Made by a program: the position numbers and the translations under genes
Notes under the pieces: model-generated
Told to the model about the DNA's origin: nothing
Databases searched by the model: none
The model's input: the letters and a program-made list of their open reading frames with translations, nothing else
In this document: positions 44,859-44,890 of the stretch, in pieces
Layout of the letters: the number at the start of each line of letters is the position of its first letter
Position numbering within the stretch: the first letter of the stretch is position 1
Assembly (NCBI RefSeq): GCF_030013205.1
Contig: NZ_CP122648.1
DNA: 64,000 nucleotides
From: Escherichia coli
GTDB lineage: Bacteria > Pseudomonadota > Gammaproteobacteria > Enterobacterales > Enterobacteriaceae
Reading direction: 5' to 3' (one strand)

Positions 44859-44890
44859 TGCCGGATGCGGCGTGACGCCTTACCCGGCCA
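44859..44890. repeat. REP (repetitive extragenic palindromic) element
   Basis: tgccggatgcggcgtgacgccttacccggcca matches REP consensus GCCGGATGCGGCGTGAACGCCTTATCCGGCC. Confidence 0.7.

Follow-up and report, generated by a model that had tools for sequence, protein, structure and literature searches.

A Y-Type REP Downstream of yncJ in Escherichia coli and Two REP-Like Sites in the Same 64-kb Region

What is the palindromic sequence that follows yncJ in Escherichia coli, and which of the functions and movements attributed to its kind could apply to it? A first-pass annotation of a stretch of 64,000 nucleotides of E. coli DNA (here called the window) had described it as a REP, with two degenerate relatives elsewhere in the same stretch. 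On the evidence presented below, the whole is very likely best explained by a Y-type REP fixed in the gap between yncJ and rlhA, with roles inferred from its family, together with an internally deleted z-type REP between narU and narZ and a palindrome containing REP heads between ddpF and osmC.

The window is a chromosome segment whose orientation is opposite to that of the K-12 map (about 1.50–1.56 Mb). The lineage of this chromosome is porcine ETEC: pieces of the window match porcine and other strains with 100% identity, and positions 30200–44650 are 100% identical to the porcine ETEC strain ETEC4079. Two further strains used for comparison have a limited range, CFSAN018748 being not collinear with the window upstream of yncJ and K_EC180 being collinear only up to narZ. 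Based on the ORF listing and the RefSeq annotation of identical genomes, yncJ (44619–44849, + strand) encodes a protein of 76 amino acids of the DUF2554/YncJ family. Its TGA is followed by the 10-nt spacer GTCATTTATT (44850–44859, + strand, read from the sequence), which leads to the first base of the palindrome's stem; the last T of this spacer is also the first base of the REP consensus. On the other strand, the stop codon of rlhA (ydcP) lies at 44941–44943 (K_EC180 annotation mapped onto the window, and the sequence itself), about 50 nt from the foot of the REP. The two genes are thus convergent and separated by 91 nt.

Identity of the Element Downstream of yncJ

The element, TGCCGGATGCGGCGTGACGCCTTACCCGGCCAAC, occupies positions 44859–44892 of the + strand in iREP orientation. 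Gap-tolerant local alignment of these positions with the Y-type REP consensus gave a score of 53, compared with a maximum of 29 in the control of 10 shuffled windows. Fixed-length IUPAC consensus searches allowing up to three mismatches found no match in the window, because this REP has one loop nucleotide fewer than the consensus. We also built an nhmmer profile, independent of the consensus, from 29 REPs harvested at 13 loci in 200 kb of unrelated K-12 DNA, including those of the rayT REPtron, malE-malF, and lamB-malM. These training REPs have consensus scores of 40–74, a range that includes the score of 53.

The best profile match in the 64-kb window was found at 44859–44889 (+ strand, E = 2.7e-5, 20.6 bits), followed by matches at 27411–27432 (+ strand, E = 0.019, 11.5 bits) and 11157–11179 (− strand, E = 0.26, 8.0 bits). 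The top score in 20 shuffles was 8.9 bits. The top three matches are exactly the three sites that the first-pass annotation had named. Of 5426 complete E. coli genomes, 5425 carry relatives of the 34-mer in at least 40 places each, and none of the matches listed overlaps an annotated feature. The copy studied here is extragenic as well, lying within the 91-nt gap. In addition, naRNA4 (RF02564, derived from REP325), the single REP-derived family in Rfam, matched the element on the − strand with 30.9 bits (E = 3.8e-4). The gathering threshold of that family is 59.5 bits, and about half of it is reached, as expected when one REP unit is compared with a two-unit model. REP unit sequence and structure are common to both; naRNA4/REP325 (PMC4550694) is a two-REP cruciform of a BIME-2 cluster, whereas the element downstream of yncJ is one unit.

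The stretch at 44859–44892 is therefore an ordinary element of an already known kind, a genuine Y-type REP. The first-pass annotation, which had placed it at 44859–44890 and named a consensus search as the check and a lack of profile matches as the sign against it, was right about its nature and within 2 nt about its extent: a Y-type match exists in the consensus comparison (53 vs. 29) and in the profile search, and the copy number and an IS1397 insertion in strain 042 (see below) agree with both.

REPs or palindromic units of the Y class are associated with Stern, Higgins, and Gilson and follow the nomenclature of Bachellier et al., as referred to in PMC3333891. The element shares with this class a length of about 34 nt, the head TGCCGGATGCGGCG, the 3′ arm CGCCTTA(T>C)CCGGCC, an imperfect stem with mismatches, an extragenic position between convergent genes, a high copy number, and use as an IS1397 target. 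It differs in that its loop in E. coli is 1 nt shorter (TGA or TAA vs. TGAA), a T>C substitution within the 3′ arm adds an A-C mismatch, and the foot reads CAAC in the window and not the canonical CTAC. It is also not part of a BIME, which consists of at least two alternating REPs and a linker. The REP profile found no second REP in 44850–44940, and the element is thus a singleton, as are 84 of the 584 REPs of K-12 (PMC3333891). Those 584 REPs are spread over 4.64 Mb (PMC3333891), an average of about 8 per 64 kb. The window contains only one intact REP, indicating that this terminus-proximal stretch is REP-poor.

Two weaker consensus matches, at 19150–19165 inside fdnG and at 42410–42437 inside ydcR, were rejected as intragenic and at chance level. 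REP features are absent from the NC_000913.3 annotation examined, even in the yaaX-yaaA gap of K-12, a known place of an annotated REP. Missing annotation is therefore uninformative.

The first-pass annotation had further proposed that the repeats explain several short spurious ORFs, such as 44719–44913, which is true in part. This mechanical ORF of 64 amino acids is not called in the public annotations compared. The REP provides a stop-free stretch (...IAGCGVTPYPA...) and lets the ORF continue 64 nt past yncJ; most of it (131 of 195 nt) lies within yncJ in another frame. Mechanical ORFs that cross the narU-narZ and ddpF-osmC sites likewise consist mostly of neighboring gene sequence. For practical purposes, the feature downstream of yncJ should be treated as a standard REP, and any short ORF that runs across it should be disregarded.

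Two Further Sites with REP-Like Sequence

The second-best profile match lies in the 94-nt gap between narU (stop codon 27400–27402) and narZ (ATG at 27497). The match, which is above all 20 shuffles, covers profile positions 13–31 only, and the consensus score of the site is 30. Its 13-mer CGTCTTATCAGGC occurs once only in the window and was inside REPs in all five of its training occurrences. The site (27411–27435, + strand) can be read as TGCCTGA / CACGTCTTATCAGGC / TAC, that is, as the head and the 3′ arm of a z-type REP whose interior is missing. The K-12 allele, TGCCTGATG/TAC, is another deletion form and is 13 nt shorter. This length dimorphism is species-wide, with the long allele in about 1860 genomes and the short allele in about 3560. 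A single internal deletion in a full z-type REP would yield either allele, but no single deletion turns one allele into the other. Judging from these sequence comparisons, REP ancestry of the narU-narZ site is likely, and its alternative deletion alleles would illustrate how REPs decay.

On the − strand next to it, 27439–27454 (TGTCGGATGCGACAC) may be the head half of a second, inverted REP. The profile E-value of this fragment is 1.4, which is not significant alone, and the fragment hints at a former, now decayed BIME. Because the narU-narZ site is intercistronic, a role as a 3′ stabilizer would apply to narU only. Upstream of its annotated ATG, the narZ frame contains no stop for 41 codons (window 27374–27496), through the REP remnant and the whole gap, so that a mechanical ORF caller would over-extend narZ.

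Farther downstream, narZ is truncated, and its frame ends at 30301. It is followed by a single copy of IS91 (orf 30383–30748, transposase 30748–31935) and by a 5′-truncated pqqU remnant (32119–33399), the whole region spanning 30301–33399. Because the truncated narZ is joined via IS91 to the pqqU remnant, about 22 kb (narY through yncE) that are present in K-12 and CFSAN018748 are missing from the window. The sister strain K_EC180 has a larger deletion, which extends to yncJ. Another truncated gene in this lineage is ydcV, which encodes a permease of the ydcSTUV ABC transporter; the annotation of ETEC4079, an identical strain, shows it as a fragment of about 114 nt (38807–38920 in the window).

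The third site is a palindromic element on the − strand that fills the 55 nt (11157–11211) separating ddpF from osmC, two convergent genes, as seen from an inverted repeat, an RNA hairpin, the profile, k-mers, and breakpoints. An 11-nt inverted repeat pairs 11168–11178 with 11187–11197, and the RNA of the osmC sense (−) strand is predicted to form a G-U-rich hairpin of 16 pairs (−27 kcal/mol, z = −4.1) with a non-canonical partner. The 11-mer TGCCTGATGCG (11169–11179, − strand), a REP head fragment, was inside REPs in 9 of its 11 training occurrences and is found once only in the window; TGCCGGATGACGCG (11193–11206, − strand) resembles a second REP head. Only the head half of the profile matches, at a score within the shuffle range, and the canonical REP 3′ arm is absent from this site. 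A scan of 11050–11300 found no terminator-like sites.

More than 1000 genomes apparently lack the ddp operon (verified in SF-173), and in these the homology to the window begins exactly at 11168. In strains with a GntP permease/3-hydroxybutyrate dehydrogenase cassette it begins at 11190, and their osmC flank consists of the perfect 22-nt palindrome GCCGGATGACGCGTCATCCGGC (read at two loci). The breakpoints of both large gene-content variants, the loss of the ddp operon (11168) and the replacement by the cassette (11190), thus fall exactly inside palindromic modules. REPs are known hot spots of recombination and insertion, and gene-content breakpoints inside a REP-like palindrome at the 3′ flank of osmC fit this role.

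Close to these modules, a 17-nt tandem duplication of GCTGTAGAGATGCTAAC spans the ddpF stop codon (positions 270–305 of the strain 1223 segment, window equivalent 11150–11166). It is present in the three listed genomes with a span of 228 nt, the sequence having been read in strain 1223 only, and such genomes are probably among the 344 records of the 80–90% identity band.

Are the two secondary sites (11157–11211 and 27411–27454) related to REPs at all? Alternatively, they might be independent palindromes or regulatory hairpins, such as a 3′ hairpin of osmC and an intercistronic structure of narU-narZ. Both fold better than shuffled sequences (z = −3 to −4), the naRNA4 model matches neither of them, the ddpF-osmC site (E = 0.26) lies within the noise of the profile, and the osmC 3′ flank of other strains carries a different palindrome, the perfect one of 22 nt. 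However, the two sites rank second and third among all REP-profile matches in 64 kb, each has its own long k-mer diagnostic of REPs, found nowhere else in the window, and the two narU-narZ alleles are each explained by one deletion from a full z-type REP but not from each other. An origin unrelated to REPs is therefore rather unlikely for the two sites together. Derivation from a REP is the probable reading for narU-narZ, and for ddpF-osmC the sequence leaves REP ancestry evenly balanced. The latter is most safely described as a REP-like palindrome at a structural-variant junction and not as an intact REP. Accordingly, of the two degenerate copies that the first-pass annotation had proposed, the one at narU-narZ is supported by the profile and the 13-mer, and the one at ddpF-osmC is weakly supported.

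Hairpin, Termination, and Proposed Roles

The stem of the REP downstream of yncJ extends over 44860–44888 (+ strand). As + strand RNA (yncJ sense), it is predicted to form 11 pairs, interrupted by two mismatches, around a loop of 3 nt (−15.7 kcal/mol), modestly better than shuffled sequences (z = −1.98, 7 of 200); as − strand RNA (rlhA sense), the predicted energy is −20.8 kcal/mol (z = −3.1). The internal mismatches are at canonical REP positions. An inverted-repeat search seeded with 6 nt missed the stem, since mismatches interrupt its arms. A promoter-like match at 44872–44900 was discarded because such matches occur at chance frequency.

The gap between the convergent genes contains no other strong hairpin, and REPs and BIMEs have been tied to transcription attenuation (PMC12306157, PMC2817692). 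Thus, one might regard this hairpin as a bidirectional intrinsic (Rho-independent) terminator for both genes, whose likeness to REPs is incidental. However, no T/U tract follows the stem on either strand, and a terminator scan of 44500–45100 found no intrinsic terminator-like site on either strand. Moreover, the sequence belongs specifically to a family present at 40 or more sites in each genome, so that the likeness is not incidental. We consider the terminator explanation very unlikely, and the Y-type REP should not be recorded as a terminator, an sRNA gene, or a mobile element.

The functions reported for the REP family include mRNA stabilization, attenuation, and control of translation when the REP is no more than 15 nt from a stop codon (PMC12306157). 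As summarized in that source, REP hairpins are a barrier to 3′-to-5′ exonucleases (Newbury 1987 and others). The first-pass annotation had assigned a probable stabilizing role to its repeats. At the 3′ end of the yncJ mRNA, the hairpin would block such exonucleases and stabilize the upstream message, and the same barrier would act on any rlhA read-through transcript from the other strand. Protection of the mRNA 3′ end is a textbook role that we infer for this REP, and it is compatible with the hairpin. The REPs described as mRNA stabilizers at malE-malF, hisJ-hisQ, and gdhA (Newbury 1987, Merino 1987, cited through PMC12306157) resemble the present sites in that a REP hairpin lies in the 3′ UTR (yncJ) or in an intercistronic gap (narU-narZ). 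They differ in that, by the account given there, those REPs were tested by deletion and half-life measurements, whereas the role at yncJ is a putative one and the narU-narZ site is a deleted remnant.

A second role is suggested by position. The last base of the yncJ TGA is 44849 and the first base of the stem is 44860, with 10 nt between them. REPs close to a stop codon have been reported to lower translation with a limit of 15 nt (Liang et al. 2015, as described in PMC12306157), and the spacing at yncJ is inside this limit, as it is for the REPs that Liang, Rudd, and Deutscher (2015) are cited for in the same source. Because the stem begins less than 16 nt after the stop codon, terminating ribosomes could be hindered and the output of YncJ lowered; the REP may therefore throttle translation of YncJ. 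Three points here go beyond the first-pass annotation, namely the distance of 10 nt between stop codon and stem, the missing GTAG/CTAC foot (discussed below), and the location of the narU-narZ site between two cistrons and not at the 3′ end of an mRNA.

Alleles, Mobility, and an IS1397 Insertion

A span of 151 nt around the REP has equal length in 5411 of 5413 genomes, and the 91-nt gap is essentially indel-free in E. coli. The K-12 copy is at the same position; its loop has TAA where the REP of the window has TGA, a change of one base, and its tail reads GGCAGGC where that of the window is GGCCAAC. Only point changes distinguish the alleles of B2, O157, and further lineages. A search with a degenerate pattern of the YncJ C-terminus recovered only two extra Escherichia lineages, E. 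whittamii and the divergent strain E69. Both have the REP 10 nt after the yncJ TGA, indicating that the element predates these splits. In E. whittamii the loop has the length of the consensus, and the tail, GGCCTAT, is nearly canonical.

Is there any sign that the structure or its position is under selection? Pair counting across eight alleles showed that the hairpin is retained, with 94.8% of cells paired and 8 of the 11 pairs invariant. Compensatory changes were not found in these eight alleles, and the loop-closing pair is broken in three of the seven distinct ones; thus, there is no positive sign of selection on structure. The spacer has the same length in all eight alleles, including that of E. 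whittamii, and 4 of its 10 positions vary. A distance of 10 nt that is kept while the bases change might reflect selection for REP-mediated ribosome stalling that throttles the small secreted YncJ. This is a rather improbable idea, and a simple absence of indels would give the same constancy: since the whole 91-nt gap is essentially indel-free, constant spacing is not specific evidence of constraint.

The foot of the element bears on whether it could still move. Binding and cleavage by TnpA-REP require GTAG, and mutation of GTAG abolished both in vitro (PMC3333891). A RAYT-competent REP has a conserved GTAG on the 5′ side of its stem foot, or CTAC on the complementary strand; this tetranucleotide is missing here. 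The foot reads CAAC on the + strand of the window (GTTG on the − strand), AGGC in K-12, O157, and B2, CTGT in E69, and CTAT in E. whittamii. The CTAC foot has thus decayed independently in each lineage. Among the 29 harvested K-12 REPs, the consensus alignment of five stops before the final TAC (judged from alignment ends alone), which suggests that the TAC tail is not universal among REPs.

The element belongs to a RAYT-associated family and retains an imperfect stem with the mismatches needed by TnpA-REP (PMC3333891), and one could propose that it is currently mobile, as a RAYT (TnpA-REP) substrate or as half of a REPIN, and still cleaved and copied. Against this, the foot is GTTG on the REP strand in the window and wholly different in K-12, O157, and B2 (GGCAGGC), and GTAG mutation has the in vitro effect cited above. 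Furthermore, the profile detected no partner REP in the gap, no RAYT gene lies within the window, and in E. coli, E. whittamii, and E69 alike the element has kept one position and a single length. Current mobility is thus a highly improbable explanation. A REP with neither GTAG nor a partner REP would no longer be a substrate of RAYT (TnpA-REP), and for both reasons the Y-type REP downstream of yncJ is probably an immobile fossil.

The gap is disrupted in only about 2 of 5413 genomes. One of them is E. coli 042 (NC_017626.1), where homology breaks at window position 44873, within the REP loop. The locus reads GCGGC-GTA-[1432-bp element]-GTA-ACGCC, with a 3-bp GTA target duplication. The 1432-bp element has the inverted ends TGAACTG...CAGTTCA and is annotated as an IS1397 transposase; the insertion occupies 3574–5011 of the 042 segment compared, and its removal restores a K-12-type loop. 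IS1397 has been shown experimentally to insert specifically into E. coli REPs (PMC1525189). The REP downstream of yncJ is naturally recognized as an IS1397 target in 042, which makes it a documented natural case of such targeting.

That the palindrome is a chance G+C-rich one outside the REP family can practically be dismissed: the empty fixed-length consensus searches (up to three mismatches), which would speak for it, are due only to the 1-nt shorter loop, and it is refuted by the alignment with gaps allowed, the independently built profile, and the number of copies per genome, with which the IS1397 insertion agrees.

Rfam matches above the gathering score were also found elsewhere in the window. 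These are the sok antitoxin RNA next to hokB (59718–59869), the sRNA RydC (60429–60492), and a SECIS element inside fdnG (19843–19901), all of which are expected in such a region.
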